DNA of 64,000 nt from Bacilli bacterium. Lineage in GTDB: Bacteria > Bacillota_I > Bacilli_A > RFN20 > CAG-826. The DNA lies in the NCBI GenBank assembly GCA_045628045.1, contig JAZQOV010000011.1, positions 4,912-68,911 on the forward strand. The letters are read 5' to 3'. Made by a program: the position numbers and the translations under genes. Positions within the stretch are counted from its first letter, which is position 1; every line of letters starts with the position of its first letter. The notes under the pieces were generated by a model. It was not told the origin of the DNA. It searched no databases and saw only the letters and a list, made by a program, of their open reading frames with translations. This document shows positions 17,469 through 64,000 of the stretch, piece by piece.

Positions 17469-17474
17469 ATTTTT

Positions 17475-46333: not shown

Positions 46334-48325
46334 ATGATTAACTTTGTTAAAGCGATAAAAATAATATGCGCTACTTTTAGCGCACTTACATCAATGTTTG
46401 GCATTAAGCCAAATCATGATAAAAAATACACCTATGTTTCTTTAGGTGATTCCATGTCTACTGGTTTTGGCTTTGATGACTATTATATTGACGACGAAAT
46501 CATTCCGGTTGAATCAATGGAACATTATAGACCAGAAGACGGTCATAAAAATGTTCATGGATTTTTAAGAGAGGCCAAAGAAGCTTATCCAACCTTAGTT
46601 CATTCTTATCTAAAAGATAAATATGGAGAAGAGAATGTTGAGCATATTCAATTAGCGGTTAACGTTACAAGAATTGATGATATTTATTATCATCTTAACA
46701 AAGACGCAAAAACTGACGAATTTTATCAAGCCCTTTTTGAAGATAATGGTCATGGTGATCAATGGAATGATGTTTTTGCTAATAGAGCAAGACAATTTGG
46801 TTACACTACAAATGAAGATAACAACGAAGCTGTAGTTGAAACATACGTAAATTCTATAAAGAAAGCCGATTTAATAACTTTAAATGCTGGATTTAATAAC
46901 TTTGGTTGTTTCTTTAGCGGAAAATTAGGCGACATTATTGAAGGTTTGCCTATTGCCGAAAGCTTTGGAGGTCACGACACTCTCCAAGGATTCTTAGATA
47001 GAACTGGTGTTGATCTTAATATTGGCGAAGTTTATGAGCAAATAAATGATATTTTTCATAGTTACACTGGACTTGATTTAACTTCGTATGAAAAGGTCAA
47101 AGTTGGTGGCTATAACATTAATGTTAAATATTTATTAGAACTCATTGTTACTGCCTTTGCTTCATATTGTTATTATATGAATGAGACCACTAAATTAATT
47201 TATGAATTAAATCCAGATGTTGAATTAGTGGTAATTGGATTATTTAATATCCTAAAGGGTATTAAACTTTCTGTTAATGATATAACAATTGATGTTGGTG
47301 AAATCACTAGCAAGATTTTTGAACTTGTTAATTTACATACAGCCTTAGGAACAGAATGTTCAAATAAATACAAATTCGTGGATTCTACAGATTTAAACGT
47401 TGGTATTCATGCTGAAGATATTGCTAATGGCACAATGGACGAAGAACAAGTAAGACGTGCATACATTGGCTTATACACAATGGCTAAAGAAGTTGGTGTT
47501 GATATTCCAACATTTACTATAGTAAAAGACCAAATTAATGGAGCCATGATTAATTTAGGCAATCTTGATTTTGATATCTCTGAATATATTGTTGATGAAG
47601 ATGAAAATCCATTAACTGATGCTGAGGCTTATGAGACTAAGTGGTTAGCATCATCCTTGGTGTTTGGTGAAGAGAATGCTAACAGCATTAATAGCGTGCT
47701 TAACGAGTATTATGGCGTCATTGATTCACTCTTTAATGTTCTAAAACGCGCCACAAACTCAAAAACAGTCACTTTAGAAGCTCTTTCTAGTTTAGGTGAA
47801 AGTATTTCTGTTGAACAAATTAATAATGGCGATTTTGATGGTTTAATTAATATTTATGTTCGCATTGTTATCAACAATGGAATGTGGAGTCATCCTAACG
47901 AAGAAGGGCACATTGAAATTTCAAAAGCAGTTATTGAAACACTTGAAAGTCATAAAACTGCAAAAGAAGTTGGAGAAGAAAGAATTAGAAACATTCTCAC
48001 TAACATTACTTCTGAAATAGATTCGCTAGTGGATGAGTTAAAAACTCAAATTGGAATTGAGACAAAAACACTTCTTGTAAAGTTTATTGGAGAAAAAGGT
48101 TATGAAAAAGTAATTGAAGTCTCCACAAAAGTTTATAAACTCATTAAAGAATGCATTAGAATTTTGAATTTTATAGATCAATTTTTATCTTTGATAAAAG
48201 AATACAATCCTATTCTTTATAAATTCATCGAAAATTTTAATGGTAATTTGCAAAAATATTTGGTTAATCCATTTATTAAGAAGATTTTATCTTCAAATCG
48301 TTTTTGCAATATTTTATTAGGATAA
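46334..48325 (+). CDS. SGNH/GDSL hydrolase family protein (third paralog)
   Basis: YVSLGDSMSTGFG, LNAGFNNFG, WSHPNEEGH. Confidence 0.75.
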   Translation: MINFVKAIKIICATFSALTSMFGIKPNHDKKYTYVSLGDSMSTGFGFDDYYIDDEIIPVESMEHYRPEDGHKNVHGFLREAKEAYPTLVHSYLKDKYGEENVEHIQLAVNVTRIDDIYYHLNKDAKTDEFYQALFEDNGHGDQWNDVFANRARQFGYTTNEDNNEAVVETYVNSIKKADLITLNAGFNNFGCFFSGKLGDIIEGLPIAESFGGHDTLQGFLDRTGVDLNIGEVYEQINDIFHSYTGLDLTSYEKVKVGGYNINVKYLLELIVTAFASYCYYMNETTKLIYELNPDVELVVIGLFNILKGIKLSVNDITIDVGEITSKIFELVNLHTALGTECSNKYKFVDSTDLNVGIHAEDIANGTMDEEQVRRAYIGLYTMAKEVGVDIPTFTIVKDQINGAMINLGNLDFDISEYIVDEDENPLTDAEAYETKWLASSLVFGEENANSINSVLNEYYGVIDSLFNVLKRATNSKTVTLEALSSLGESISVEQINNGDFDGLINIYVRIVINNGMWSHPNEEGHIEISKAVIETLESHKTAKEVGEERIRNILTNITSEIDSLVDELKTQIGIETKTLLVKFIGEKGYEKVIEVSTKVYKLIKECIRILNFIDQFLSLIKEYNPILYKFIENFNGNLQKYLVNPFIKKILSSNRFCNILLG

Positions 48326-49496: not shown

Positions 49497-49868
49497 CTAG
49501 ATCTTCTTAAAATGTTTCTTAGTCTTCTGTGCGTCTAATAATTCTTTTTCCAATTCTTCTTTCTTTGGGAGATGAGTTATATATTTAGTCACAAAGATTT
49601 GGTTCGTAATATTTCCTAGTGCATATTCTACCTGTATGTGATCATAGTCAGTACACATGACAATACCAACAGGGTCATTGTCGCTCGATTTATTAACGTT
49701 TTCCTTAAAATAATTTAGGTAAGTGTTAATTTGGCCCATTACATCTTTTTTAAATGGAGTGGCTTTTAGCTCAATGAGCACATAACATTTAAGATTTTCA
49801 TTATAGAACACTAAATCGACAAAATATTTCTTGTTATCAATTAAAAATTGATACTGATTATCATTGAA
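49497..49868 (-). pseudogene. DUF1016/YhcG-type PD-(D/E)XK nuclease, C-terminal fragment
   Basis: The frame reads FNDNQYQFLIDNKKYFVDLVFYNENLKCYVLIELKATPFKKDVMGQINTYLNYF.., the nuclease core (D..ELK). It continues the N-fragment at 51240-51887. Confidence 0.75.
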
Positions 49869-49995
49869 CTACCCCCACTTAAACATTCTATGTTTAGAAG
49901 ATGGGGGATTCCTACTCAAGAATCCTCGAGGATTCAGTGTCGATAGGCTAACCCCGTAGTTCCTACGGTTTGGTGGACTACCACTATTGTTTTTG
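49869..49995 (-). ncRNA. candidate TnpB omega/right-end RNA scaffold
   Basis: Unusually GC-rich stretch abutting the tnpB 3' end. Minus-strand hairpins CCGTAG-gaa-CTACGG, GAATCCTCGAGGATTC and CCCCCATCTTCTAAACAT-agaa-TGTTTAAGTGGGGG, ending at the element boundary. Confidence 0.55.
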
Positions 49996-51132
49996 AAGTA
50001 CTAATCTAATTCCTTCTTTTTTGATATTAATTGCTGCATTTATATCTCTATCATGCTTTCTACCACAGATAGGACAAATCCAATCTCTATCATTTAATTC
50101 AAGACTTTTGTTGATGTAACCACAATCACTGCAAGTTTTACTAGACGGAAAGTACCTATCTACTTTTATTAATTCCTTACCTAACCATCTTAATTTGTAA
50201 TCTAGAAAATTGACAAAAGTTCCATATGCTCGATCAGATAGATTTCTGCCCAACTTCATTTTTGTATCTTTTGATTGCATTGATTTCAAATCTAAATTTT
50301 CTACAAAAACATAATCGTATTTATTTGCAATTTTTCTGGATTCTTTATGCAAAAAATCTTTCCTAGAATTTGAAATATGAAGTTGAAGTTTTCTGACTTT
50401 TTGCCAGGATTTAATGGAGTTTTTGCTACCTTTTTGGCATTTTGATGCTCTTCTGGTTAATTTTGCAAGTTTCTCCATTTCGTTTTGAAGATACTTTGGC
50501 ATATCTGCGTGATTGCCATCGCTATCGACATAAAGATGTGACAAAGAAAAATCTAATCCTATTGAGTTGTTGATATCAAGTTTTTCAAGCTTGTCGAATA
50601 ACTCGACGTTTGGATTATCTTCTTCACCAGTCAATGTCACAAAATACATGTTTGCAACTCTAGAGATGGTGACTGTGGTAAAAGAGAATGATTCAGGCAT
50701 CAAACGAGATACTACAACTTTAACTCTGCCTAATTTAGGAATTTGGATTTCGTTACCATCAAGGCGGAGGTTATTGTTGATTTTCATAGTTGTGTAGCTA
50801 TGATCATTTCTTTTGGATTTAAATTTTGGAAAAGAACCTCTATGTTCAAAGAAATTAATATACGCAGCATGTAAATGAATAATGGCTTGTTGCAAAGCAA
50901 CACTATCAACTTCTTTTAAGTATTCATACCCTTCTTTGTAATCAGGAAGTATTTTGACTAAATCAAATTTTCTCAATTTAAAAGAAGGATCTTCCGCGTG
51001 CTTTTCGACACACATTTCAAGAAAATCATTATAGACTTGGCGAACGCATCCTAAAGTTTTCTCAATTTGTTGTTTTTGAGAAGAATTAGGATAGATTCGA
51101 AATTTATAAGCTTTCTTTATTTTCTTTTCCAT
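49984..51132 (-). CDS. tnpB: TnpB (OrfB_IS605) RNA-guided endonuclease
   Basis: RuvC-like IGLDFS, VFVENLDLKSM, RDINAAINI. Zn finger CSDCG...CPICG. N-terminal YKFRIYPN typical of OrfB. Confidence 0.9.
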   Translation of the reverse strand: MEKKIKKAYKFRIYPNSSQKQQIEKTLGCVRQVYNDFLEMCVEKHAEDPSFKLRKFDLVKILPDYKEGYEYLKEVDSVALQQAIIHLHAAYINFFEHRGSFPKFKSKRNDHSYTTMKINNNLRLDGNEIQIPKLGRVKVVVSRLMPESFSFTTVTISRVANMYFVTLTGEEDNPNVELFDKLEKLDINNSIGLDFSLSHLYVDSDGNHADMPKYLQNEMEKLAKLTRRASKCQKGSKNSIKSWQKVRKLQLHISNSRKDFLHKESRKIANKYDYVFVENLDLKSMQSKDTKMKLGRNLSDRAYGTFVNFLDYKLRWLGKELIKVDRYFPSSKTCSDCGYINKSLELNDRDWICPICGRKHDRDINAAINIKKEGIRLVLQKQ

Positions 51133-51239
51133 ACTTATATTATACTATCATTTCTTAAGAAATGATAGTGTTATTTCATTTTTTGCTTGCAATTCATCCC
51201 GCCGCTTTACGAGCTTCAAGCGTGGGTCTTCTTGCTAAA

Positions 51240-51887
51240 TTAGATAAATCTAAAACCTGAGCCTAGTTCTAAAAGGAATTCTTTCATGTGCGTTATAATA
51301 CCTTTTTCAATTTCTTTTTCCCTAAGGTTAAAACCTTTTTTGAAGAAATTAATTACAATCGGATCTACCATTACATCTTTTGGTTCAACAATCTGATTCC
51401 CAAGAGTGGATAATTGATTCTTTTTTGCCTCTATATTTTCTTTTGAGCCCAGTAAGATTCTTTGATAGTATCCCGATTGTATTTGTCTTTTTAAATCCCT
51501 GACAGACCATCTTTGTTTTGCACACTCTATTTCATAGAATTTTCTTTCTTCATCATTTTTTACATTTAGAAGACAAAAGTAATGCCCCCATGATAAAGTG
51601 GGAAACAGTGTTTCCCAATTTTTATATATAATATAAAAATTTAACATTGCTTTAATGTTTCTTCTTGAATACCCAGAGCCGAATTCTTTGGTTAGCTCAT
51701 TAGAAATTGAACTAATCGTGCGCTTTTTATAATCGCTTTTTCCTTTATTGGAGTCGATGTCTTTTTGAATTTGTTCCCCTATATACATATAAAGCTTAAG
51801 TAATTCAGTATTAACGTTATATATGATTTTTGCCTTCGTTGTTTCTATTGCATTTTTTAAATTTATTACTAGTTTATTTTCTTTCAT
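51240..51887 (-). pseudogene. DUF1016/YhcG-type nuclease, N-terminal fragment
   Basis: GGAGGAGG RBS. WSVRDLKRQIQSGYYQRIL and ..FLLELGSGFRFI* match the DUF1016 N-region layout. The stop is created at the IS junction. Confidence 0.75.
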
Positions 51888-52121: not shown

Positions 52122-53297
52122 ATGTATGACATTAATATAAAAGTTTGCGAAAATACTAAAGTTTTTATTTTTAATGGTCCTATCGACTCTAACGTTACAG
52201 ACGAAATTAAAAATTTCGTTGAATCGAATTCTTCTGGCTCTGATAGCGTTATTTTTGATATGGAAAAAGTTCCATACATGTCTAGTGCAGGCCTTAGAGT
52301 AGTGCTTAAGACTGCTAAATCAGTAAAAGAATTTGAAGTTATCAATGCTTCTGTAGAGTTATATAACATTTTCGACATGGTTGGGTTTACCCAAATGATC
52401 AAAATTAAGAAAGCCATGAGAGAAATTTCTATCGAAGGAAAAGAACTTATTGGAGAAGGTTATATGGGTAAAGTCTATAGACTTGATCCAGATACAATCA
52501 TCAAAGTATTTAAAAGAACCTCTGATACTTCTGATATCGAAAGAGAAATTTCTTTGGCAAAGAAAGCATTCATTCTTGGAGTTCCTACCGCAATACCTTT
52601 TGACATAGTCAAAGTTAAAGAAGGTGGCTACGGTTCTGTATTTGAACTTCTTAAATCATCTTCATTTAATAAATTATTTATTAATCATCCTGAGAAGGAA
52701 GATGAATACATTAAGATGTACGTGAACATCATTAAGACAATTACTTCTATTGAGGCTAAAAACCCTAGTGAGTTCCCTCGTAAGATAAATGATGCGTTAA
52801 CTTGGGTAAATGGTCTTAAGGAAGCAAAAGCCTATGATGAAGCTACACTTGCTAAACTTGAAAAATTAGTTAACACAATTCCTGAGAGTTCGCACTTAAT
52901 TCATGGTGATTGCCACATCAAAAATATTATGATGCAAGGTGATGAACCATTCCTTATTGATATGGACACTTTGGGTGTTGGGCACACCATATTTGAGTTA
53001 ACTGCAATATTCTTAACTTATATCGGATATCCTGATAAATTCCCAGGAAATGTCCAGGAATTCCTAGGTATTTCCGATGAAACCGCTAAGAAATTATTCT
53101 ATTCAACAATTGATTCTTTATACGCAGATAAATCAAAAGAAGAAAGAAACACAATTGTTGAGAAATGTGCTTTGTTTGGTTATATGTGGTTAACATACAA
53201 GACATTATTATTTGAACCAGAAAATAAAGTAAGACTTGATAACGCAAAAGAGAAAGTTATGAGTCTTATTGATAAATACGACACACTTAATTTTTAA
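52122..53297 (+). CDS. STAS domain fused to an APH/choline-kinase-like phosphotransferase domain
   Basis: AAGAGG RBS. STAS string YMSSAGLRVVL. Kinase strings GEGYMGKVYRL..IIKVFK, HGDCHIKNIMM, LIDMDTLG. Confidence 0.75.
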   Translation: MYDINIKVCENTKVFIFNGPIDSNVTDEIKNFVESNSSGSDSVIFDMEKVPYMSSAGLRVVLKTAKSVKEFEVINASVELYNIFDMVGFTQMIKIKKAMREISIEGKELIGEGYMGKVYRLDPDTIIKVFKRTSDTSDIEREISLAKKAFILGVPTAIPFDIVKVKEGGYGSVFELLKSSSFNKLFINHPEKEDEYIKMYVNIIKTITSIEAKNPSEFPRKINDALTWVNGLKEAKAYDEATLAKLEKLVNTIPESSHLIHGDCHIKNIMMQGDEPFLIDMDTLGVGHTIFELTAIFLTYIGYPDKFPGNVQEFLGISDETAKKLFYSTIDSLYADKSKEERNTIVEKCALFGYMWLTYKTLLFEPENKVRLDNAKEKVMSLIDKYDTLNF

Positions 53298-53315
53298 TGA
53301 AAGAAGGACACGAAA

Positions 53316-53612
53316 ATGGAAATAAACAAACTTGTAGAGAAAGACACTCTCACACTTGCTATTGAAGGAAGACTTGATACTTTAACATCTCCAACCCTTC
53401 AAGAAACAATTAATTCATCACTTGAAGGCATTGTTCATTTAGTAATTGATCTAAAGAAAGTTGTCTATATTTCGAGTGCCGGATTAAGAGTAATTTTAAG
53501 TGCACAAAAATTAATGAATACGAAAGGTGATATGGTTGTAAAAAATTGTTCAGCTGAAGTCCTTGAAGTTTTTGAAATGACAGGATTTACTGAGATTTTA
53601 ACGATAAAATAA
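53316..53612 (+). CDS. STAS-domain anti-sigma-factor antagonist (SpoIIAA/RsbV-like)
   Basis: 98 aa. LAIEGRLDT.T...L, YISSAGLRVIL, EVFEMTGF. Confidence 0.85.
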   Translation: MEINKLVEKDTLTLAIEGRLDTLTSPTLQETINSSLEGIVHLVIDLKKVVYISSAGLRVILSAQKLMNTKGDMVVKNCSAEVLEVFEMTGFTEILTIK

Positions 53613-53613
53613 T

Positions 53614-56484
53614 ATGGAATTCCTGGATATTTTTAAATTTATAATAGCTGCAATCATTCCAATTCTTTTAAGCGTTGGCTGTATTTATCTTGAGAAAACA
53701 AGAAGATTTTCTAAGTTAAACAAATACGTTAAAGCTTTAATATTTGGAGTTATTTTTGGCATCAGTTCAATTAGTGGAACTTTACTTGGTTTAAAACTAC
53801 CAAATGGCGCAATCATCAACGTGCGTGATGCCTCTCCTATTATATGTGGTCTTCTTTTTGGTGGACCATCAGGAATTTTGGCTGGCTTAATTGGCGGCGG
53901 CTTTAGAGCACTTACTCCTCTTTGGGAACCATCGACAGCTTACACAGTTGTTGCATGTTCTATTTCAACCGCAATGGCTGGTGTATTTACTGTGTTTGTT
54001 AGACATTTCATCTTTGATGATAAAAAAGGTACTTGGTACTATGGATTCTTCCTTGGCGTATTAGTTGAAGACTTCCATATGATGATGTCTGTGCTTACAC
54101 ACACAGAAGATATTGTTAAGGTTTATAACTCAGTTATAAAAGTATGTACAGTTCCAATGGTATTAGCAAATTCATTAGCGGTAATGATTGCAATTATTAT
54201 TGTTAATTTAATAAATCACGAGAAAATATTTGAAAAAGAAGTCAGAACTCATATTTCTACAAAGGTTCAGGTTTCTTTGATTCTTTCTCTTGTTGTTTCT
54301 TATGTTGCAACTGCGTTATTTACGAATATGTCTGTTAATAAAGTTGTTCAAACAAATATTAAAGGTCAATGTGAAAACGCTATAAGCGATGTTATTAATA
54401 ATGTTGATGACACAATCAACAATGTTATGAGTGACAAACTTGATGAAGTCGCAATAAAACTTCTTGATGAAGTAAAACCATTAGAAAAAGATAGGCTTTT
54501 ACGTAAAGAAGCATTAGTAAGTATTCTTAATGATTTCTCTGGTGAGATTTCTGAAATCAATATTGTTGGCACTGATGGTTTTGTTCATTATTCCACAGAT
54601 CAATACGATTTTATGGAAGACGGAAGTGGACCATTTAACATGGAAATTGGTGACCAATCAAGAGAATTTAATGTCTTACTTAAAGAAGGCGAAACAAACT
54701 ATTTTATCCAGGAATTCCGCGAGATTTCTGCGTATGATGGCGGAAAATCAATGAAATATGCTGGCTATAGATTTGATGCTGAAGACATTGAATCAGACTT
54801 CTGTTATTTCCAAATTGGTTTAGATGCTGCAAGGTATCACGAACTACTTCAAGACTATGTTGATGAATGTGCTAAATTTAGACACATTGGTGAAGAAGGA
54901 TTCGTTGTAGTTAGCGATGAAAATGGTGCAATTGTTTCAACAATCGTTGATTGTCCATTTACTGAAACAATTGATGTAAATAAGTTCCTAAACGATGGTT
55001 ACGATAAATATTACACTTACTCTAAATTTGTTGAAGGTTACTACATTGTTGCTTTTGCAGGCGCTGAAGAAAGTGATTTAGCATCCGTAATTTCATTCAC
55101 TGCAATTTCTCTTGCTGAAGTTTTTGTTTATTTGCTTTTATATTGCGTTTTATATATAGCAGTTAAACGTAGAATCGTTGATAAAATTAAAACTATAGGC
55201 TTAAGCCTAAATGAAATTTCTTCAGGAAACTTAGATGTTGTTGTTAATCAAAGAGACAGTTATGAATTTGATTCATTAAGTAACGACATTAATAAAACTG
55301 TTGGAACTCTTAAAGAGTTCATTGCGAAAGAAGCTAATAAGAATGCTGAAGAGTTAGCATTTGCTAAAAACATTCAATATTCTGTTCTTCCAACCGCTTT
55401 CCCAATGAATGATAGATTTGAAATTTATGCTTCTATGTCAACCGCCAAGACTGTTGGTGGTGACTTCTATGATTTCTATTTTATAGATAGAGAGCATGTA
55501 TTAATTGAAATCGCTGATGTTAGTGGAAAAGGTATTCCTGCCGCTATGTTCATGATGAGAGCAAAATCTGTTCTTAAATCACTTATAGAATCAGGTATTG
55601 GAATTGAAAATGCCTTTATTGAAGCAAATAGAAAACTTTGTCAAGGTAATGATACTCAAACATTTATTACGGTTTGGGGTGGAATTATCGATTTAACTAC
55701 AGGACATGTTGACTTTGTCAACGCTGGTCATAATCCTCCAATTATTTGTAGAGATGGCAAATTTGAGTACTTACATAGTAAACCAGGCTTTGTTTTAGCA
55801 GGTTTAGAAGGATTTAAATACGTTAAGCAAAGCTTTGACATTAAGCCAGGTGATATGATTTATCTTTATACTGATGGTGTTACTGAAGCTAATAACGAAA
55901 AACATGAACTTTATGGAGAAGAAAGACTTCTTAAAGCAATTGGAGATAAAACATATACTTCTAAATCTATTTGTGAAACTGTCTCAAAGAGTTTGAAGAA
56001 GTTTGTGAATGATGCAGAACAATCTGATGATATTACAATGCTCGCATTTAAATTCTATGATGTTGAGCTCGCTAATATTAAAGTTGTGGATGCAGACTTA
56101 AAGAATTTACCAGAAATCATAGATTATATCGATGATTTGCTTGATAAAAATAACGCCACATTATCTGCAAAATCACAAATCGATGTAGCAGTGGATGAGA
56201 TATTCTCAAATATCGCATTCTACGCTTATCCAGAAGGCCAAGTTGGTAAGGTCAAAGTTTCAGTCATTATGTCTAAAGACAATGAAGAAATGACCATTAT
56301 CTTTGAAGATAAAGGAAAAACATATAACCCACTTGAGAAAGAAGATCCAGATACTTCACTATCTCTAGAAGAGAAGTCTATTGGTGGACTAGGTATATTT
56401 ATTGTTAAAAAGACAATGGATTCATTAGAATACGATAACGTTAATGGTCATAACGTATTAACCCTCAGAAAGAAGATTCATTAG
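53614..56484 (+). CDS. membrane sensor (LytS-type 5TM) - extracytoplasmic domain - HAMP - PP2C/SpoIIE phosphatase - RsbW/SpoIIAB-like HATPase fusion
   Basis: N-terminal multi-TM region. HAMP-like KRRIVDKIKTIGLSLNEISSGNLDV. PP2C strings GGDFYDF, DVSGKGIPAAMFM, LYTDGVTEA, DDITMLAF. C-terminal VDEIFSNI.., GGLGIFIVKKTMD. Confidence 0.8.
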   Translation: MEFLDIFKFIIAAIIPILLSVGCIYLEKTRRFSKLNKYVKALIFGVIFGISSISGTLLGLKLPNGAIINVRDASPIICGLLFGGPSGILAGLIGGGFRALTPLWEPSTAYTVVACSISTAMAGVFTVFVRHFIFDDKKGTWYYGFFLGVLVEDFHMMMSVLTHTEDIVKVYNSVIKVCTVPMVLANSLAVMIAIIIVNLINHEKIFEKEVRTHISTKVQVSLILSLVVSYVATALFTNMSVNKVVQTNIKGQCENAISDVINNVDDTINNVMSDKLDEVAIKLLDEVKPLEKDRLLRKEALVSILNDFSGEISEINIVGTDGFVHYSTDQYDFMEDGSGPFNMEIGDQSREFNVLLKEGETNYFIQEFREISAYDGGKSMKYAGYRFDAEDIESDFCYFQIGLDAARYHELLQDYVDECAKFRHIGEEGFVVVSDENGAIVSTIVDCPFTETIDVNKFLNDGYDKYYTYSKFVEGYYIVAFAGAEESDLASVISFTAISLAEVFVYLLLYCVLYIAVKRRIVDKIKTIGLSLNEISSGNLDVVVNQRDSYEFDSLSNDINKTVGTLKEFIAKEANKNAEELAFAKNIQYSVLPTAFPMNDRFEIYASMSTAKTVGGDFYDFYFIDREHVLIEIADVSGKGIPAAMFMMRAKSVLKSLIESGIGIENAFIEANRKLCQGNDTQTFITVWGGIIDLTTGHVDFVNAGHNPPIICRDGKFEYLHSKPGFVLAGLEGFKYVKQSFDIKPGDMIYLYTDGVTEANNEKHELYGEERLLKAIGDKTYTSKSICETVSKSLKKFVNDAEQSDDITMLAFKFYDVELANIKVVDADLKNLPEIIDYIDDLLDKNNATLSAKSQIDVAVDEIFSNIAFYAYPEGQVGKVKVSVIMSKDNEEMTIIFEDKGKTYNPLEKEDPDTSLSLEEKSIGGLGIFIVKKTMDSLEYDNVNGHNVLTLRKKIH

Positions 56485-56493
56485 GTAGAAATT

Positions 56494-57324
56494 ATGTCAA
56501 TTGCAGATAAGATTTTTGTAGAAAATATGAAAGACATTCTTAAGAATGGTTTTTCAGATGAAAAGTTAGAAGTTAGACCTCATTGGGAAGATGGAACTCC
56601 TGCTCACACGATTAAAAAGTTCTGTATTGTGAATAGATACAATCTTCAAGAGGAGCTTCCAATTCTCACAATAAGAAAAACCGCTTTTAAGTCATGTCTT
56701 GATGAACTTCTTTGGATTTGGCAAAAGAAATCAAACAATATTCATGATTTAAAATCACATATTTGGGATTCTTGGGCTGATGAAAATGGTTCGATAGGCA
56801 AAGCCTATGGTTATCAACTTGGAGTCAAACATCATTATCCTGAAGGAGACATGGATCAAGTTGATAGAGTTCTTTATGATTTAAAACATAATCCTCAATC
56901 AAGAAGAATCTTAACAAATATCTATAATTTCCAAGATCTTCATGAAATGAATCTTTATCCATGCGCTTACTCAATGACATTTAATGTCACTGGTGACACA
57001 TTAAATGGAATTTTAAATCAACGTTCTAACGATATGTTAACAGCGAATAACTGGAATGTTTTGCAATATTCATTATTGTTAATAATGTTCGCGCAAGTTT
57101 CAGGTTTAAAACCAGGAACTCTAGTTCATGTAATCGCTGATGCTCATATTTATGACCGCCATGTTGAGCTTGTTAAAAAGGTAATTGAAAAACCTCAACA
57201 TAAAGCTCCTAAATTATGGGTTAATCCAGAGATCAAAAACTTCTATGATTTTAAAGTTGAAGACTTCAAACTTATTGATTATGAATATGAAACTTTAGAA
57301 GAAAAAATACCGGTGGCAATTTAG
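56494..57324 (+). CDS. thyA: thymidylate synthase (Bacillus ThyA type)
   Basis: LLWIWQKKSN, DQVD..L..LK.NP.SRR, LYPCAYSMTFNV (catalytic Cys), RSNDM, PKLWVNPE.KNFYDF..EDFKLIDY. Closely parallels B. subtilis ThyA. Confidence 0.9.
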   Translation: MSIADKIFVENMKDILKNGFSDEKLEVRPHWEDGTPAHTIKKFCIVNRYNLQEELPILTIRKTAFKSCLDELLWIWQKKSNNIHDLKSHIWDSWADENGSIGKAYGYQLGVKHHYPEGDMDQVDRVLYDLKHNPQSRRILTNIYNFQDLHEMNLYPCAYSMTFNVTGDTLNGILNQRSNDMLTANNWNVLQYSLLLIMFAQVSGLKPGTLVHVIADAHIYDRHVELVKKVIEKPQHKAPKLWVNPEIKNFYDFKVEDFKLIDYEYETLEEKIPVAI

Positions 57325-57325
57325 T

Positions 57326-57820
57326 ATGATTATTTCAATTTTAAGTGTTGACAAAAACTATGGAATTGGGAAAAATAATTCCCTTCTTTTCCATCTAAAA
57401 AAAGACATGGAATTCTTCAGAAAGACAACTGAAGGTCATATGGTTTTTATGGGTGAAAATACTTTACTTTCTTTCCCTGGAAGTAAGCCACTTAAAAATA
57501 GAATCAATGTAGTTCTTAGCAAAGACAAAACTCACAATTACGAAGGTTGTAAGAATGTTCACAATTTCCGAAAATTCACGAGAATTCTCAGGAAAAATGG
57601 CAGAAAACACGATGTTTTTGTAATTGGTGGAGCGTCTATTTATATGCAAACACTTCCTATAGTGGATATGGTATTATTAACCAAAGTTGATGCTGATGGA
57701 CACGCTGATGTCTTCTTTGATAATTTAGATAAAAATCCATCTTTTGAATGTGTTGATCAAGGCACACCAATTATGGATGGAGATTACAAAATTAGATTCA
57801 CAACTTATATTCGAAAATAA
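57326..57820 (+). CDS. folA: dihydrofolate reductase
   Basis: ISILSVDKNYGIGKNNSLLFHLKKDMEFFRKTT, VIGGASIY. Immediately follows thyA. Confidence 0.9.
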   Translation: MIISILSVDKNYGIGKNNSLLFHLKKDMEFFRKTTEGHMVFMGENTLLSFPGSKPLKNRINVVLSKDKTHNYEGCKNVHNFRKFTRILRKNGRKHDVFVIGGASIYMQTLPIVDMVLLTKVDADGHADVFFDNLDKNPSFECVDQGTPIMDGDYKIRFTTYIRK

Positions 57821-57868
57821 TCTTTAGTATTGTATTGCAATTTAACGAGAATTATTTGTAATATTGTT

Positions 57869-57929
57869 ATCAGGCGAGATGGGTCTGACAAAAGGAAAGA
57901 GATTGGCTGCTACCAATCTCTTTTTCATA
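57869..57929 (+). ncRNA. candidate sRNA module A (tandem copy)
   Basis: TTGCAA (57835-57840), N18, TAATAT. The transcript starts AUCAGGCG... Perfect 11-bp terminator stem AAAGAGATTGG/CCAATCTCTTT (57896-57923) followed by TTTC. Confidence 0.45.
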
Positions 57930-58011
57930 CTTTGGAATACAGACTGTAGAATTAATCATGAATTTTGCAAAAATGCATTGAAATAATTATGAATTTAGAT
58001 ATAATAATAGT

Positions 58012-58070
58012 ATCAGGCGTGGGATCTGACAAAAGGAAAGAGATTGGTTGCATCCAATCTCTTTTTCATA
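58012..58070 (+). ncRNA. candidate sRNA module B (putative antitoxin RNA, convergent with the 39-aa ORF)
   Basis: TTGAAA (57978-57983), N16, TATAAT (58000-58005). Same stem as module A with a different loop (58037-58064) followed by TTTTC. On the minus strand the same hairpin is followed by CCTTTTG. Confidence 0.45.
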
Positions 58071-58100
58071 GTTTGGAATACAGGCGTGGGTTTCTAACCC

Positions 58101-58220
58101 TTAATCATTGATTTTAATAATCAGTAAAATAAGAGCTAGAATAAGAAGGTACTCCACTAAGGACATCCTCCCTTCCCAAACGCCTGAATGCAAACTCCGA
58201 CGTTCGAAGACCGCCATCAT
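58101..58220 (-). CDS. 39-aa hydrophobic peptide, candidate type I toxin (not in ORF track)
   Basis: Minus strand: AGAAAGGAAT ATG ATG.. encodes MMAVFERRSLHSGVWEGRMSLVEYLLILALILLIIKIND*. Strong SD-like AGAAAGGA, with tight spacing. One predicted TM helix. Confidence 0.4.
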   Translation of the reverse strand: MMAVFERRSLHSGVWEGRMSLVEYLLILALILLIIKIND

Positions 58221-58446
58221 ATTCCTTTCTATGAAGTCAAATGAATTATTGACCCCACACTAACTAATTAGAGAAAAATAAGCAAAACTGCTAAAAAATA
58301 TTTTTAATATATTAATATATTACAATTTAGCACTTTTTCTGAGACTCAAAAAAGTACGGAAAAAAACTTGCTTTTATACTTAAAAAGGAATAATTTAACA
58401 TAAATGTTTAATTACATTGCTTTACTCTAGAAAAGAGGTAGAAGTT

Positions 58447-61400
58447 ATGAAGAAAAGTAGATTTTATACTTTATTAGCTCTATCAAGTATCCTTACTTTA
58501 GGAACTGCTTTTGCAGCCACCTCAATTAATGATGAAACTAATAGAAACCAAGGCATTAACGAATTAAATGCAGAGTCTTTGTCAGAGGATAAACTTTATG
58601 TTGCTCCTGCTGCAGTTTCTCCATATACATACACTACTTCTCCAACTAATGAACCGTGGTATAAAAATAGCCACGAATACCATTCTACAGCAACTGGATC
58701 AGATGGGTTTGATTATCAAAGAAACCAAAAAACTACAATGTATGATTTCATGAATGTTTCTGAAACATGGAACTCATATCGTGGTGAAAATGTTAAAGTA
58801 GCCGTTATTGACACAGGTTGTTATACATCACATGAAGACTTTAACGGCACAAATATAAAAACAATCTCTAAAAACATGGTGTCAGGAACAACTGGATTAT
58901 CAGCTGTAAATGATGCTCATGGACATGGAACAACTTCTGCAGCAACAATTGCGGCCGCTGTTAATGGTAAAGGCGGCACCGGAATTGCACCAAATGTAGA
59001 ATTAATAGTTTTGAAATGCGTTGATGCTAACAATGCTTTTAGTAATACTGCAATTAACAATGCTCTTCAATATTGTATTGATAATGATGTTGATGTCATT
59101 AACATGTCAATTCAAGGTTACAACGTTTATTCAAACTTTTCCTCAACATATGTTGAAGATTTTGGAAATTACACGGTAAACACAACTTCATCTGGCATAA
59201 TGACTCCTACACAATTCTCTACAAAAATTAAAGCTTGTCACGATGCTGGTATTACTTTAGTTGCCGCTGCCGGTAACTATAATACTTCCAAAGAATCATA
59301 TCCTGCTGCCAATGATTATGTCATTGCTGTTGGCTCCACAGGCTTAACGAGTGCAACATCAAAAGCTGGTTATTCCAATTATGGAGATTGGCTTGATATT
59401 AGTGCTCCTGGTTACGTTTATACTCCATCGCTATCCGGAACCGACCAATATTCTGTTACAAATGGCACAAGCTTTTCTGCTCCTTTGGTTACTGGTGCAA
59501 TAGCACTATATAAATCAAAATATCCTGATGCAACTCCTGATCAAATTGAAGAAGCTCTAAAAGCGACTGCTCAACCAATTAATTGGCAAGGTGGCGCTGG
59601 GGCAGTTAATGTTGGAGCTTTCTTGGAATATGCTCCTAAGTCACCAGTTAGCAGTTTAGCTCTTCCTGATGAAACAAAGACATTATCTGTTGGAGAAACA
59701 TATCAACTAATTCCAACAATTTTACCGTCTGATGCTTCGCAAGAAGTTACTTATGGTAACACAGACAATTCTGTTGTATCAATTTCAAATACTGGATTAG
59801 TCACTGCATTAAAAGCAGGGACATCAACAGTCACTGTGTATAGTAAAAACACATCCATCTATGACACAGTTGTAATTACTGTTAATGCTGTTACTGGCGA
59901 GAAAAAAACAGTATCAAAAGAATGGACTTTAACCAGTTCTAATACTGATTGGACAGCATCAGGAAACGAAACATATTTTAGCCAGCCTTATGGTTACAAA
60001 GCAAATGGTGGAACTCTCATTACAACAAATTCAATAGAAGACTTTACTAAAACAAACAAAACAGAGATTAAAGTTAGTTTTAAGTGTCTCCAAAATGGTG
60101 GTTCAAGTTCAAAAATCACTATTTACCTTTACGATAGCAGTGGAAACGTATTAGGTTCAGAAGTTTTTACTCCTGTAAATAAAAATTCAGCTTCCAATAC
60201 CGAATATTGCACAGCAACATTCACATCAAATTTAACTAATGCAGCCAAAATAGGAATGAAGGTCACTACGTTTGGAAAGAACATTTTGGTTAATGGTGCA
60301 AAGTATGAATTGACTTATCTAGATTCAGGAGCAACCCCGTCAGTTAAGACGCTTTCTAGCATTTCTGTTTCTAATCAAAAAACCACATTTACTGTTGGTG
60401 AAACATGGACATTTGGCGGAACAGTAACTGCTACTTACTCTGACAATTCAACTGCAGATGTTACTTCTAATGTCACATTCAGCGGTAACACAACATCATC
60501 CGCCGGTCAAAAAACGGTAACTGTTTCTTATAAAGAAGGCAGTGTTGAAAAAACAACAACCTATTCAATTACTGTTTCAGCACCGGTTGTTACAAATTAC
60601 ACTGTCACATTTAACTCAAATGGTGGTTCGGGCACAATGACTAGCAAAACCACTACTGGTTCTACATATGTTGTTCCTGAATCTAACTTTACAAAAGAAG
60701 GCTATACATTTGACAAATGGGCTCTTAATAGTACATCTGGTAGTAAATACGCAGCCGGAACAACAATCAATAATATCTCCTCTAATATCACGTTATATGC
60801 TACATGGATTCAAGATTTAACACCTCAACCAGGTGATTATTACAAGGATGTCGACACAAGCTCTCAAGAAAATCTAATTTCAACATTGCATTCAACCATT
60901 TCACAGGGAACTGTAGATGTTGGTTATGATGGCCTTTGGGATGCTTATGAAAAAACAGATTTACGTCCTGGGACAAATTATTATTGGGATATGTATTCCA
61001 ATTATAATTTTACAAAATCTTCGCCAAATAGCAATTATAAAAAAGAAGGTGACGCAGTAAATAGAGAGCACACTGTTCCACAATCTTGGTTTAATGAAAA
61101 ATCTCCAATGAAAGCCGACTTATTTCATGTTTATCCAACTGACGGCTATGTAAACAATAGAAGATCTAATTATCCTCATGGTGATGTTGGTAATGCAACA
61201 TATACTTCTGAAAACGGAAGTAAATTGGGAACAGCTAGCTTTCCAGGAATTTCAGGCACCGTTTTTGAAGTAATTGATGAATATAAGGGCGATTTTGCCC
61301 GCAGCTATTTTTATATGGCTACCAGATACTATAATACGTTTAATGATTGGGATTCAAACGTGATATTCCAAAAAACACCGCCGTATATGACTTCTGCTTT

Positions 61401-64000
61401 CATCAATCAATATTATGCATGGCATATAGCTGATCCGGTTTCAGAAAAGGAAGTAAACCGTAATGAAGCAGTTTATGGAATTCAGAAAAATAGAAATCCG
61501 TACATTGATCATCCTGAATGGGTTGCATATGCTTTTAAAGGCATTGCTCCAATTGTGGGTGAAAAAACACTTAACTCAATCACTTTAAGTGGTTCACAAA
61601 AAACAGAATTTACTGTTGGTGAAACTTTCTCATATACTGGATTAGTTGTCACTGCTCATTACTCAGACAACACAACAGCAATAGTAACACCAACAAGTGT
61701 TTCTACACCAGACATGAATTCTGCTGGTGAGAAAACAGTTACTGTTACCTATACAGATTCAACAGGAACAAAGACTGATACTTATACTATTACAGTAAAA
61801 AGCAGTGGAGTTACACCAGAGCCAGAAAAACACACAACTGCATTAACACTAGATAAAACAACCGCAACAATAAAAGTAGGAGAAAATCTAACATTAACAG
61901 CAACTAAGACGCCATCTGATTCAGTTGATGGAATTAGTTGGTCCACGGACAATTCTTCTATTGCAACAGTTTCAAATGGTGTAGTAACAGGCGTTTCTCC
62001 AGGAACTGCAACTATCACAGCTACATCTAATGGCATCCCTGCCACTTGTTTAGTTGAAGTTAAATCACAAAGCACTAGTAGTACTGTCACAGCATCAATT
62101 GATTTTACAAATAGTAATGATTCTTACAAAGACAGTGTTGGAAATACATGGACAGGAGCCGGAGGCAATAAAGGAAATTATTATCGACTTGATAGTGCTG
62201 ATTCTATAACAAGCTCATCAATTTCTATTGATACTTCAAAAACAATAGATCTTTCTCTATACATTGGTTCATATGGTAGTGGCACCAAAACGCTAAGTGC
62301 TTATGCAATTAATAGTTCTGGAACAGTTGTTACAAACCAAGTTTCAATGTCACCAACATCTACGAGTTCAAATAAATTTACAGGGACTCTAACTTTTAAT
62401 AACACCTCAGATTCAAATATTAAAATTGTTTTTAAAACAACTTCTGGTTCAATTCGTTTTTACAAAGGAGATATTACTTATACTCCGTTGTCAATTGGAC
62501 CACAAGTAACAAGCATTTCATTAAGTGAATCAGAATTAACTTTTGATTTATATGATAATTATTCGCCTCAAACACTTACTGCTAGTATTGAAGCAGATGT
62601 CGGTGCCGACAAAACAATACTTTGGACATCTTCTGATGAAACTGTCGCAACAGTTGTTGATGGTGTTGTTACTCCTCACTCCAAAGGAACTGCAACAATT
62701 ACCGCAACATCTAAAGCAAATTCAGAGATAAAAGCTACTTGTAAAGTTGAAGTTACTGATTCTAGTCCGATACCGGTCACCGGAATAACATTAAATGAAA
62801 CTTCAGCAACACTTATAATTGGTTCAACCTTGACATTAGAAGCAACAATCACACCTACTAATGCTACAAATAAAAATATTAGTTGGTCTTCTAATAATGA
62901 AAATATTGCTACTGTTTCAGATGGCCTTGTTACAAGCAAGGCTATTGGTACAGCTATTATAACAGTTACGACAGATGACGGCGGTTTTACTGCAACTTGT
63001 ACAATAACTGTCAGTGCCGCACCTGTTATCACATATCAACTTGAAGCAGATGAAACAGAAGTTCCATTTATGAGCGGAACAAATCATATTGCTTCGGTTG
63101 GAGTCAAATTGTATCAATACACAAATGGTGTTAAAGGAAACCAGGTTAGTTCAGGAAGCTCTAATGTTGATACTTCTTCATTAGGCAACAAAACAATTTC
63201 TTATATTTATCAAGATATTACATACGAAACGATAGTTAAAGTAACAAATTATGGTGCTGATGTTGGCTTGCCAACCCAATTAGATCCAGTAACTAATAAC
63301 ATAACGTCAAGTTTTACAGTCACTAGCAGTACTACTAGCTCCTGGAGTATGCCAACTGGATGGACTGTTACAAGTAGTGGAACAACTGGTTACGAAGCCA
63401 ATCGAGGAATTCAATTACAAAAGAACGCAAAAATATCGTTCGTTCTTCCTTCATATAAGAATATTACTTCCATTTCTTTAGATGTTGCAAGAAGCAGTAA
63501 TGGATCAGGTTCTTTTACGGTAACCGTTGATGACGAATTAGTTAAAACAATTTCTAGTTTTAATACTACAAAAACTACACAAACGATTAAATTTGATGAG
63601 GCAAAATCAGGTGTTATTAAAATTGATGGCAGCGCTTCTGCTAGCTCATTATATATCAAAGCAATTTCTATAAATTATCAAGAAATTGTAGAAGGTCAAT
63701 TAATTGAACACAATGCCACACCAAATCAACAAGCGATAGCCTGGTCTGATTATTTTATTAAGTTAACTGGTGGCGGAGCATTTGATGGACCATGTAAAGA
63801 ATCAACTCCAGAAGCAAGAAGAGCTGCACTTCAAGAAATTTGGGGTGAAGTCTCTGCAGAATATGGTTACATGGTAAATGGATCTAAAGATGCATTCTGT
63901 GATTCATCTGCCACTGGTTCTATTTCAGAGGCAATGCAACATTATAGTTACATTGTTGATACATATGGATTAGATAATTTCGTTAAAGATGGATCAGGTA
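58447..64000 (+). CDS. giant secreted multidomain protein, 3'-partial: S8 subtilisin-like protease, Big_2 domains, Listeria-Bacteroides repeat, endonuclease I domain
   Basis: I translated this frame from ATG 58447 (AGAGGT RBS) to base 64000 and found no stop. It is absent from the ORF track because no stop lies in the window. Signal peptide. S8 triad strings VAVIDTG, HGHGT, GTSFSAP. YTVTFNSNGGSGTM..GYTFDKW. Endonuclease I strings NREHTVPQSWF, DLFHVYPTDGYVNNRRSNYPHG (about 60.84-61.55 kb). Confidence 0.85.
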   Translation, partial: MKKSRFYTLLALSSILTLGTAFAATSINDETNRNQGINELNAESLSEDKLYVAPAAVSPYTYTTSPTNEPWYKNSHEYHSTATGSDGFDYQRNQKTTMYDFMNVSETWNSYRGENVKVAVIDTGCYTSHEDFNGTNIKTISKNMVSGTTGLSAVNDAHGHGTTSAATIAAAVNGKGGTGIAPNVELIVLKCVDANNAFSNTAINNALQYCIDNDVDVINMSIQGYNVYSNFSSTYVEDFGNYTVNTTSSGIMTPTQFSTKIKACHDAGITLVAAAGNYNTSKESYPAANDYVIAVGSTGLTSATSKAGYSNYGDWLDISAPGYVYTPSLSGTDQYSVTNGTSFSAPLVTGAIALYKSKYPDATPDQIEEALKATAQPINWQGGAGAVNVGAFLEYAPKSPVSSLALPDETKTLSVGETYQLIPTILPSDASQEVTYGNTDNSVVSISNTGLVTALKAGTSTVTVYSKNTSIYDTVVITVNAVTGEKKTVSKEWTLTSSNTDWTASGNETYFSQPYGYKANGGTLITTNSIEDFTKTNKTEIKVSFKCLQNGGSSSKITIYLYDSSGNVLGSEVFTPVNKNSASNTEYCTATFTSNLTNAAKIGMKVTTFGKNILVNGAKYELTYLDSGATPSVKTLSSISVSNQKTTFTVGETWTFGGTVTATYSDNSTADVTSNVTFSGNTTSSAGQKTVTVSYKEGSVEKTTTYSITVSAPVVTNYTVTFNSNGGSGTMTSKTTTGSTYVVPESNFTKEGYTFDKWALNSTSGSKYAAGTTINNISSNITLYATWIQDLTPQPGDYYKDVDTSSQENLISTLHSTISQGTVDVGYDGLWDAYEKTDLRPGTNYYWDMYSNYNFTKSSPNSNYKKEGDAVNREHTVPQSWFNEKSPMKADLFHVYPTDGYVNNRRSNYPHGDVGNATYTSENGSKLGTASFPGISGTVFEVIDEYKGDFARSYFYMATRYYNTFNDWDSNVIFQKTPPYMTSAFINQYYAWHIADPVSEKEVNRNEAVYGIQKNRNPYIDHPEWVAYAFKGIAPIVGEKTLNSITLSGSQKTEFTVGETFSYTGLVVTAHYSDNTTAIVTPTSVSTPDMNSAGEKTVTVTYTDSTGTKTDTYTITVKSSGVTPEPEKHTTALTLDKTTATIKVGENLTLTATKTPSDSVDGISWSTDNSSIATVSNGVVTGVSPGTATITATSNGIPATCLVEVKSQSTSSTVTASIDFTNSNDSYKDSVGNTWTGAGGNKGNYYRLDSADSITSSSISIDTSKTIDLSLYIGSYGSGTKTLSAYAINSSGTVVTNQVSMSPTSTSSNKFTGTLTFNNTSDSNIKIVFKTTSGSIRFYKGDITYTPLSIGPQVTSISLSESELTFDLYDNYSPQTLTASIEADVGADKTILWTSSDETVATVVDGVVTPHSKGTATITATSKANSEIKATCKVEVTDSSPIPVTGITLNETSATLIIGSTLTLEATITPTNATNKNISWSSNNENIATVSDGLVTSKAIGTAIITVTTDDGGFTATCTITVSAAPVITYQLEADETEVPFMSGTNHIASVGVKLYQYTNGVKGNQVSSGSSNVDTSSLGNKTISYIYQDITYETIVKVTNYGADVGLPTQLDPVTNNITSSFTVTSSTTSSWSMPTGWTVTSSGTTGYEANRGIQLQKNAKISFVLPSYKNITSISLDVARSSNGSGSFTVTVDDELVKTISSFNTTKTTQTIKFDEAKSGVIKIDGSASASSLYIKAISINYQEIVEGQLIEHNATPNQQAIAWSDYFIKLTGGGAFDGPCKESTPEARRAALQEIWGEVSAEYGYMVNGSKDAFCDSSATGSISEAMQHYSYIVDTYGLDNFVKDGSG

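Follow-up and report, generated by a model that had tools for sequence, protein, structure and literature searches.

A membrane-anchored giant protein of uncultured Bacilli that joins a subtilisin-like protease to an Endonuclease I-type nuclease

Cell-envelope proteinases supply peptides to amino-acid-auxotrophic bacteria, and in the PrtP-type enzymes of lactic acid bacteria, as in the streptococcal C5a peptidase, an N-terminal S8 protease is carried on a long immunoglobulin-like (Ig-like) stalk that is fixed at its C-terminus. The membrane-associated and secreted nucleases of Mollicutes are mostly lipoproteins of other folds, for example SNase/thermonuclease-like ones, and we know of no surface nuclease of this group that has been described as fused to a protease. 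Among them MPN491 of Mycoplasma pneumoniae, Mhp597 of M. hyopneumoniae and the surface DNases of Acholeplasma are surface or extracellular proteins of reduced, low-GC bacteria related to Bacilli, and such nucleases have been implicated in nucleotide scavenging and in the evasion of neutrophil extracellular traps (NETs) (PMC9051441, PMC10805103). The Endonuclease I family (PF04231, group 9 of the His-Me finger nucleases), with Vvn, Escherichia coli EndA/EndoI, Vibrio cholerae Dns and Bacillus subtilis Bsn, comprises exported, Mg2+-dependent and sequence-non-specific enzymes, for which surface architectures with Big_2 or fn3 domains are known (PMC5714182). Here we describe a gene that begins at position 58447 of a 64,000-nucleotide stretch of DNA from a Bacilli bacterium (positions 4,912 to 68,911 of contig JAZQOV010000011.1, assembly GCA_045628045.1; hereafter the window) and that encodes an S8 protease and an Endonuclease I-type nuclease on one membrane-anchored polypeptide.

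The frame is initiated by ATG, preceded by an AGAGG ribosome-binding site 8 nt 5' of the start codon, and stays open on the + strand (58447-64000) to the window edge, with 1851 codons and no stop. This bears out a preliminary description of the window, made from its sequence alone, which had reported more than 1850 open codons and a gene missed by the list of open reading frames (ORFs); such lists leave out frames that run off the end of the source. With 23 TGG tryptophan codons and not one in-frame TGA, the frame conforms to the standard bacterial code. Among 5.8 billion proteins searched, a 100% identical full-length protein of 1899 aa was found at NCBI (P0001), encoded on a contig of 137,469 nt, from which it follows that the fusion gene ends 48 codons beyond the window. 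Only these 48 residues (NAPARISNKNFLITNVNSVTVVTAIIVMVGAMSVGAYFFYKKRKSDVE) are absent from the window; they form a hydrophobic helix followed by a basic tail, with KKRK and without LPXTG. Together with the N-terminal signal peptide, this C-terminal transmembrane (TM) helix and its basic tail agree with the exported surface protein that had been proposed.

Both domains are apparently active enzymes, judging from intact and conserved active sites. The S8 domain, which scores far above its Pfam gathering threshold (Table 1), aligns with subtilisins DY, Carlsberg and BPN' at E values of about 1e-28 to 1e-30 (2e-30 for DY and Carlsberg). D122 (VIDTG), H160 (GHGT), the oxyanion N277 (AAAGN) and S342 (GTSFSAP) fall on the catalytic triad and the oxyanion Asn of the subtilisins, and all four are invariant in 134 of 134 S8 domains of the family, including those of all 32 fusion sequences described below; the D/H/S strings had been correctly called intact. 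Pfam detected neither an I9 propeptide, the N-terminal segment 24-95 giving no match even at E <= 5, nor a PA-domain insert. The domain was also compared with the type VII mycosins, an identity that was rejected at 143.6 bits against a cut-off of 278.75 (NCBIfam TIGR03921).

The nuclease domain covers positions 4-235 of the 235 of PF04231. A profile of the nuclease domains from 18 family members (alignment A1) matches the Endonuclease I structures of Vvn (1OUO, E = 4e-17), V. salmonicida (2PU3) and V. cholerae (2G7E). When this profile is aligned to 1OUO, the motif WNREH falls on IEWEH of Vvn, so that E874 and H875 correspond to E61 and H62 of the chain (E79 and H80 in literature numbering), and in a single-sequence alignment N903 falls on chain N109 (N127). 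In Vvn the Glu is a metal ligand, the His is the general base and the Asn touches the scissile phosphate (PMC5758888). Throughout the 18 domains of A1 these three residues do not vary, nor do N872, D891, R906, R952 and N1015-R-N1017, and each of the 28 nuclease domains found by an iterated profile retains the N(R/K)EH motif. The omega-loop segment of Vvn, which holds the transition-state R99, is inserted with respect to the profile of the family; the invariant R906 and R952 are present in A1. Residues 796-1034 contain no cysteine. All strings quoted in the preliminary description (NREH..PQSW, DLFHVYPTDGYVNNRRSN and the D/H/S motifs) were found in the translation, and its endonuclease I assignment is strongly backed by these profile searches.

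The fusion is real, recurrent and limited to one protein family. PF00082 and PF04231 occur together in 26 clusters among the 120 best matches of the 5.8-billion-protein search, the iterated profile found the full-length nuclease domain in 28 sequences, and an exhaustive phmmer scan of residues 96-1035 against 1.84 billion representatives, which is free of word-index bias, yielded only four further representatives with both domains. The total stands at 32 sequences from independent NCBI, ENA and Logan assemblies, several of them on contigs of 45-70 kb, and the same continuous architecture in all of them confirms a single polypeptide and not two genes. Every two-domain protein has one layout, with a signal peptide, the S8 domain at about residues 60-100, the nuclease further on (starting anywhere from residue 377 to 1048) and, in all but P0154 and P0208, a common C-terminal cassette. 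About 90 further matches are proteins of roughly 1100-1330 aa with a signal peptide, S8, Ig-like domains and a TM helix with basic tail, and are without the nuclease. In none of the best 80 genomic loci listed for the nuclease-domain profile does the same ORF also encode an S8 domain; most of these loci come from Bacteroidota, with some Vibrio, Ignavibacteria and three Bacilli or Mollicutes metagenome-assembled genomes (MAGs), and encode stand-alone secreted proteins of about 350-1000 aa. The pairing of S8 with Endonuclease_1 is confined to one clade of uncultured Bacilli. The family includes MBR0439781.1 ('S8 family serine peptidase [Bacilli bacterium]'). By source name, none of the 32 two-domain sequences is named, and the S8-only P0070 ('S8 family serine peptidase') is the only named member of the family.

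Compared with the described systems, the window nuclease shares with the Endonuclease I family the full-length profile, the Glu-His pair, the metal/phosphate Asn and the remaining residues that are invariant in the family, although its identity to the solved Gram-negative enzymes is low and a single-sequence search aligns the C-terminal half only (E = 2e-4). Being cysteine-free, it is a family member that lies outside the periplasmic Vvn/EndA subgroup, whose enzymes are thought to depend on disulfides for activation (PMC5714182). Furthermore, unlike the soluble periplasmic enzymes of about 25 kDa, it is placed inside a 1,899-aa membrane-anchored protein with a protease. The likeness to the PrtP-type proteinases lies in the N-terminal S8 domain, the long Ig-like stalk and the fixed C-terminus, and by analogy the fusion protein probably works like them; it differs in having no LPXTG, PA insert or I9 propeptide, in its anchor of a TM helix with a lineage-specific cassette, and in carrying a second hydrolase. 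A precedent for one secreted polypeptide with a non-specific beta-beta-alpha-Me nuclease and a protease is found in His-Me group 5, where Endonuclea_NS_2 is fused to Trypsin_2 or Peptidase_M8 and occurs in autotransporter serine proteases of Pseudomonas aeruginosa, which has been read as a functional link (PMC5714182). The window protein differs from these fusions in nuclease family, protease clan (S8 and not trypsin-like or M8), export route and phylum. No paper on the combination of S8 and Endonuclease_1 was found in the searchable literature, so that, while both enzymes and cell-anchored digestive hydrolases are known, their obligate pairing on one membrane-anchored stalk appears undescribed.

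The two enzymatic domains do not share one history. The closest nuclease relatives among the matches listed are stand-alone secreted proteins, mostly of Bacteroidota, with 50-59% identity. The relatives with the nearest S8 domains (66-70% identical to that of the window protein) bear nuclease domains that are only 23-34% identical, whereas the two nearest fused nuclease domains, those of P0007 (76%) and P0025 (66%), ride on S8 domains of 45-48% identity. In an all-against-all comparison, at least five nuclease lineages were found on the S8 scaffold, and the lineage of the window resembles stand-alone enzymes from a Bacteroidales MAG (55%) and from a Bacillales MAG (53%) more than it does the other fusion nucleases. 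This discordance between S8 and nuclease identities, the number of lineages and the varying position of the domain indicate that the nuclease has been replaced repeatedly, which in turn points to the S8-nuclease combination itself being under selection. Taken together, the nuclease swaps, the retention of a second anchored nuclease in the neighborhood and a linkage to thyA-folA that is itself conserved (see below) suggest selection for the combination and not an accident.

Pfam backs every domain that the preliminary description had named, and its domain order is essentially right. It had overlooked the Big_3 domain at residues 643-710, and the set behind the nuclease consists of three Big_2 and one Big_3 domains and not of at least four Big_2; the order there is Big_3, Big_2, module B, Big_2, Big_2, a segment of about 85 aa, module C and the helical module (Table 1). 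The hydrophobic N-terminus is kept across the fusion-protein family. Module A has just two homologues in the retrieved family, and module B is present in 12 members, S8-only relatives among them. Modules A, B and C are mutually unrelated (BLAST E >= 0.03; jackhmmer sets without overlap). The segment 1524-1608 may be Ig-like, as its size and a Big_3-like 'GNKTISYIY..TYETIVKVT' pattern suggest.

The last ~285 residues behave in iterated searches as one conserved cassette, made of module C, the helical module and the TM helix, which is found in the fusion proteins (with the two exceptions given above) and in the nearest S8-only relatives. A single-sequence AlphaFold2 (AF2) model of the C-terminal module had a mean confidence (pLDDT) of 51 and was discarded; with a 20-sequence alignment, the cassette was modeled at pLDDT 87.5 as a beta-sandwich, a four-helix bundle with the invariant Cys, a disordered linker and the TM helix (cassette residues 259-288). 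In P0001 this helix spans residues ~1869-1891 and is followed by the tail KKRKSDVE and the stop codon, beyond the window. The Cys-containing helical module of the preliminary description is real, with C1783 (invariant in the family) and C1818, and the TM anchor lies just past the window edge; invariant A/F/C/W/M/K/Y columns mark this module in alignment A2. The likeness of module C to carbohydrate-binding modules (CBMs) is at the level of the fold only, with 8-19% identity. The four-helix bundle had no Pfam, NCBIfam or PDB sequence match and no convincing fold counterpart in PDB searches, which the beta-sandwich dominated, and the cassette profile matched nothing significantly among PDB sequences. 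In the word-indexed 5.8-billion database the same profile returned 15 short, unrelated-looking proteins and missed even known family members, so this search was uninformative.

The TM helix with its basic tail is conserved family-wide without LPXTG. The C-terminal 70 residues of P0001 show no LPXTG-like motif, nor do those of nearly all 20 relatives inspected (P0002 has one loose regular-expression match, IPISD), other known CTERM sorting types were not found either, and TIGR01167 (LPXTG_anchor) matches only the TM-and-tail part, positions 13-33, at or below threshold. P0018, a fusion protein encoded at L086 10001-14488, ends with ANNVFNMLKDDS without a TM helix, its cassette match stopping at position 254 of 285 of the profile; it may be a naturally secreted, unanchored variant. 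The same cassette terminates the neighboring nuclease-only giants in relatives, and in the window a PARCEL-repeat/DUF285 ('Mycoplasma protein of unknown function') surface protein at 13132-15582 ends in the same four-helix and TM anchor (cassette profile 158-282, E = 1.7e-9). Its presence on the nuclease giants, and that of its helical and TM part on the PARCEL/DUF285 protein, give the cassette the appearance of an anchor used for surface proteins across the lineage. A type I topology is predicted, which would place the protease farthest from the membrane and the nuclease in the middle of the stalk.

Table 1. Coordinates of the fusion gene's features and of its neighbors; positions are those of the window unless a related locus (L081 and the like) is named.
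Feature	Position	Strand	Evidence or remark
STAS/SpoIIE-type partner-switching set	52122-56484		directly upstream of thyA
thyA, thymidylate synthase	56494-57324		upstream of folA
folA, dihydrofolate reductase (DHFR)	57326-57820		upstream of fusion gene
Promoter and 5' leader, including AGAGG ribosome-binding site (RBS)	58258-58446	+	86-87% nt identity to L084 spacer; 59-nt mismatch-free run just before RBS
Signal peptide, residues 1-23, MKKSRFYTLLALSSILTLGTAFA|ATS, without lipobox Cys	58447-58515	+	basic N-terminus, hydrophobic core, AFA-A site; predicted cleavage site
N-terminal segment before protease, residues 24-95	58516-58731	+	no Pfam match at E <= 5
Subtilisin-like S8 serine protease, residues 96-400	58732-59646	+	PF00082, 145.8 bits (gathering score 21.8), Pfam match 113-376
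Big_2 domain 1, residues 401-482	59647-59892	+	PF02368, E = 1.4e-13, segment scanned alone
Beta-rich module A, residues 484-632	59896-60342	+	sub-threshold only: PPC E = 0.015, Agarase_CBM E = 0.13
Big_3 domain 1, residues 643-710	60373-60576	+	PF07523, E = 4.6e-07; between module A and Flg_new
Listeria-Bacteroides repeat (Flg_new), residues 718-785	60598-60801	+	PF09479, 53 bits (gathering score 27)
Endonuclease I-type beta-beta-alpha-Me (His-Me finger) nuclease, residues 796-1034	60832-61548	+	PF04231, 212.8 bits (gathering score 25), Pfam match 809-1024
Big_3 domain 2, residues 1051-1117	61597-61797	+	PF07523, E = 6e-08
Big_2 domain 2, residues 1131-1207	61837-62067	+	PF02368, E = 1.1e-14
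Beta-rich module B, residues 1214-1345	62086-62481	+	no Pfam match at E <= 5
Big_2 domain 3, residues 1354-1431	62506-62739	+	PF02368, E = 3.9e-10
Big_2 domain 4, residues 1443-1520	62773-63006	+	PF02368, E = 1.1e-18, full-length 1-79/79
Segment of ~85 residues, 1524-1608	63016-63270	+	no Pfam match at E <= 1; beta-rich by eye
Module C, predicted CBM-type beta-jelly-roll, residues 1615-1748	63289-63690	+	first part of C-terminal cassette
Four-helix bundle module, residues 1759-1840, C1783 and C1818	63721-63966	+	AF2 helices, cassette residues 149-230, pLDDT ~90
Start of flexible linker to membrane anchor	63967-64000	+	P0001 sequence
Gene of 310-334 aa between fusion gene and second nuclease, in relatives	L081 15250-16230; L084 15559-16515; L085 8763-9695; L086 14628-15632	- (opposite fusion gene)	sole match sub-threshold DUF5510
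Nuclease-only giants of relatives	L081 16334-20353; L084 16614-20843; L086 15747-19388; L085 661-4575 and 9798-10955		

The surroundings of the fusion gene are also conserved. The order thyA, folA, fusion gene, opposite-strand gene (318-334 aa), second anchored nuclease, smpB is kept in L081-L084 and L086, whose fusion proteins are only 39-55% identical. In L081-L083 and L086 a gap of 4 nt separates the stop of folA from the fusion gene, whose RBS lies within folA, an arrangement that looks like an operon. Between folA and the fusion gene of the window lies a 626-nt spacer with two tandem units of ~141 nt bearing strong terminator-like hairpins (57852-58083); each unit has a -10-like box, a conserved ATCAGGCG start, a 28-nt perfect-stem hairpin (AAAGAGATTGG...CCAATCTCTTT) and then T-rich sequence, and a TTGAAA-16-TATAAT promoter-like site stands ahead of the second. 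These units could be small-RNA genes, duplicated terminators or an insertion like a miniature inverted-repeat transposable element, and Rfam gave chance-level matches only on the spacer. The first part of this region (57821-58257) has no counterpart in L084, and the following ~190 nt, aligned with L084 9826-10000 (Table 1), are the best-conserved DNA of the locus. As the flanking proteins of the window and L084 are 73-92% identical and the fusion proteins only 39-46%, the fusion protein evolves much faster than its flanks while the regulatory region is conserved, and this conserved leader suggests a conserved regulatory site. The leader RNA folds no better than its shuffles (z = -0.44), with no stable structure predicted.

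The second anchored nuclease lies in relatives ~1 kb downstream of the fusion gene, just before smpB, and is a protein of 1213-1409 aa with an N-terminal Endonuclease_1 domain (unusually long, ~314 aa), Ig-like domains and the same cassette, its orthologues being 54-66% identical. L085 has three nuclease genes in a row, in the order folA, nuclease giant, fusion gene, minus-strand gene and orthologue of the second nuclease. By this synteny, a second nuclease is expected beyond the end of our window. Two further observations concern the upstream genes. In L086 (8666-9496), thyA is split into two ORFs of 99 and 137 aa directly upstream of folA and the fusion gene, which indicates a frameshift, a pseudogene or an assembly error. 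The partner-switching set, which is conserved in L084 and L087, encodes a STAS-APH fusion of 391 aa, a 98-aa STAS protein and a protein of 956 aa in which a 5TM-LytS sensor is combined with a SpoIIE phosphatase and an anti-sigma-type HATPase.

Regarding the organism, the window has a GC content of ~33%, its ThyA shares a 90%-identity cluster with MBQ9457398.1 ('thymidylate synthase [Bacilli bacterium]', from a MAG), and it contains the Mollicutes-flavored families UU173 and DUF285/PARCEL. The host-associated, auxotrophic organism of the preliminary description stays a proposal; with thyA and folA immediately upstream of the fusion gene, the organism is at least not a thymidylate auxotroph. Study codes within some contig names may hint at gut or rumen metagenomes, which does not count as evidence. 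The window is unusually rich in large, probably surface-exposed proteins, some with Ig-like or Listeria-Bacteroides repeats: the ORFs at 34100-38488, 38557-42129, 4842-7997 and 46334-48325 (663-1462 aa) have no or almost no Pfam/NCBIfam match, and those at 23891-27946 and 43505-46321 bear Listeria-Bacteroides repeats. In addition, a 1,380-nt TnpB-only element of the IS200/IS605 type (49864-51243; TnpB ORF 49984-51132, - strand, with HTH_OrfB_IS605, OrfB_IS605 and Cas12f1-like TNB domains) is inserted cleanly in a YhcG/DUF1016 PDDEXK gene, of which a 215-aa N-terminal fragment is left (51240-51887); in the near-identical strain L087 (96-98% nt identity) this gene is intact, with 335 aa and without the insertion. 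Lastly, an S-adenosylmethionine (S-box) riboswitch was found at 17473-17559 (51.8 bits, above gathering threshold), and the next sizeable ORF on its strand (18156-19214) is a Fic/DOC-family protein, an unusual pairing.

From the architecture, topology signals, conserved active sites, recurrence of the fusion, synteny and module swapping described above we infer, with moderate confidence, that the protein is a cell-surface digestive enzyme for protein and nucleic acid, acting with the paralogous anchored nuclease and linked to thyA-folA. After Sec export, the single C-terminal TM helix would tether it as a type I protein with a cytoplasmic KKRK tail, its ectodomain of ~1,840 residues forming a stalk of Ig-like (Big_2, Big_3, Flg_new) and CBM-like beta-sandwich modules. 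The S8 protease at the membrane-distal N-terminus, probably of broad specificity, would cut extracellular proteins, and the cysteine-free nuclease in the middle of the stalk, presumably Mg2+-dependent and non-specific for sequence and sugar, would cut DNA or RNA, so that substrates could include nucleoprotein such as chromatin, debris of lysed cells or viral particles. Retention at the membrane could keep the released peptides and oligonucleotides near transporters for uptake, the CBM-like modules may bind a glycan-rich substrate or surface, and the neighboring anchored nuclease would cooperate, with a genomic and probably transcriptional linkage to thymidylate synthesis. Nutrient scavenging is in this light a plausible role and the likeliest one. 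The thyA-folA linkage and the second anchored nuclease favor a role in nucleotide economy, and membrane-associated nucleases of the wall-less Mollicutes have been tied to nucleotide scavenging (PMC9051441, PMC10805103).

Several points weigh against such a digestive role. With thyA and folA next door, dTMP is not wholly dependent on salvage, and the 626-nt spacer with its terminator-like hairpins means that co-transcription with folA does not hold in the window. The presence of CBM-like modules suggests a surface rich in glycans as the target, and a divergence as rapid as that of the fusion protein relative to its flanks is more typical of pressure from immunity, phages or competitors than of digestive enzymes; fast evolution and swapping would agree both with a nutritional setting and with an antagonistic one. 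Furthermore, the nuclease could be mainly an RNase, as is Bsn, a Mg2+-activated enzyme within the same family (PMC5714182).

A wider picture, which we put forward as a speculation of rather doubtful standing, is that of a surface 'digestome' of wall-less or reduced Bacilli, in which a common anchor cassette would display interchangeable hydrolases and the nuclease slot would be refilled by recombination, partly from other phyla such as Bacteroidota. Expression would be coupled to thyA-folA so that breakdown of extracellular DNA (eDNA) feeds thymidylate metabolism, and the pairing of protease and nuclease would be selected for nucleoprotein (chromatin, ribosomes, virions) that neither digests efficiently alone.

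The same divergence and nuclease swaps would be expected of a surface molecule under antagonistic selection, and the protein could be a weapon against host defense or biofilms, its nuclease cutting the DNA of NETs, eDNA-rich biofilm or mucus and its protease stripping histones, antimicrobial proteins or immunoglobulins, with a role in evasion or colonization. Surface or secreted nucleases of pathogens, Mollicutes included, degrade NETs (PMC9051441; see also PMC9294136), and Ig-like and CBM-like modules are typical of adhesins. Nevertheless, all that is known of the organism is an uncultured MAG lineage of Bacilli, nothing ties it to neutrophils, and the linkage to thyA-folA and a second nuclease suits nucleotide metabolism better. 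We consider this role unlikely, and it is compatible with digestion at the cell surface; these explanations are not all mutually exclusive.

A protein of this kind could also serve as a barrier to foreign DNA, the nuclease destroying phage or transforming DNA before it reaches the membrane and the protease being a passenger or acting on phage particles. This role has been given for the Endonuclease_1 members Vvn, EndoI, Dns and DnsH (PMC5714182), plasmid DNA is digested by the extracellular nucleases of Acholeplasma, which are regarded as a possible hindrance to genome transplantation (PMC10805103), and quick evolution with module swaps suits an arms race. We hold it to be quite improbable: a nuclease hundreds of residues off the membrane is badly placed against directly injected phage DNA, the obligatory S8 pairing is left unexplained, and the Pfam/NCBIfam annotation of the flanking genes gave no defense-system neighbors, no dedicated defense search (PADLOC) having been made.

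A similarly low probability is assigned to a self-processing pro-enzyme, in which the S8 domain would act in cis or in trans on the stalk and on paralogues and shed the nuclease, the anchored form being a precursor. P0018, lacking the TM end of the cassette, suggests that released forms exist, surface proteins of Mollicutes are extensively endoproteolysed, with an S41 peptidase that is smaller than its sequence predicts (PMC9051441), and the ~90 S8 relatives without nuclease on the same scaffold indicate that the protease has a role of its own. However, no conserved cleavage motif was identified, the nearest solved subtilases (DY, Carlsberg and BPN') are broad-specificity degradative enzymes, and the strong conservation of the anchor cassette argues that retention matters.

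The exchange of nucleases on a conserved scaffold recalls polymorphic toxins, and His-Me nucleases are common toxin modules (PMC5714182), but an interbacterial effector with a swappable nuclease is largely refuted by the anatomy of the protein and seems very improbable to us. The nuclease lies within the chain, at residues 796-1034 of 1899, with a TM anchor at the C-terminal end; domains of a delivery system were not found, no small immunity-type gene follows (the next gene in relatives encodes 310-334 aa on the opposite strand), and Endonuclease_1 stands outside the toxin groups of PMC5714182. An artefact, in which a frameshift, a sequencing error or a chimera on this metagenome-assembled contig had joined separate protease and nuclease genes, is hardly conceivable in view of 1851 uninterrupted codons and the same domain order in 32 NCBI, ENA and Logan sequences.

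The cysteine-free Endonuclease I scaffold should fold without disulfide formation, and the anchor cassette, so far uncharacterized, could be used to mark the surface proteins of this lineage. If the scavenging role is true, the fusion protein is a natural bifunctional enzyme for the degradation of nucleoprotein, with a possible use against biofilm matrices of eDNA and protein, and it would show how poorly known gut- or rumen-type Bacilli obtain their nucleotides and peptides.

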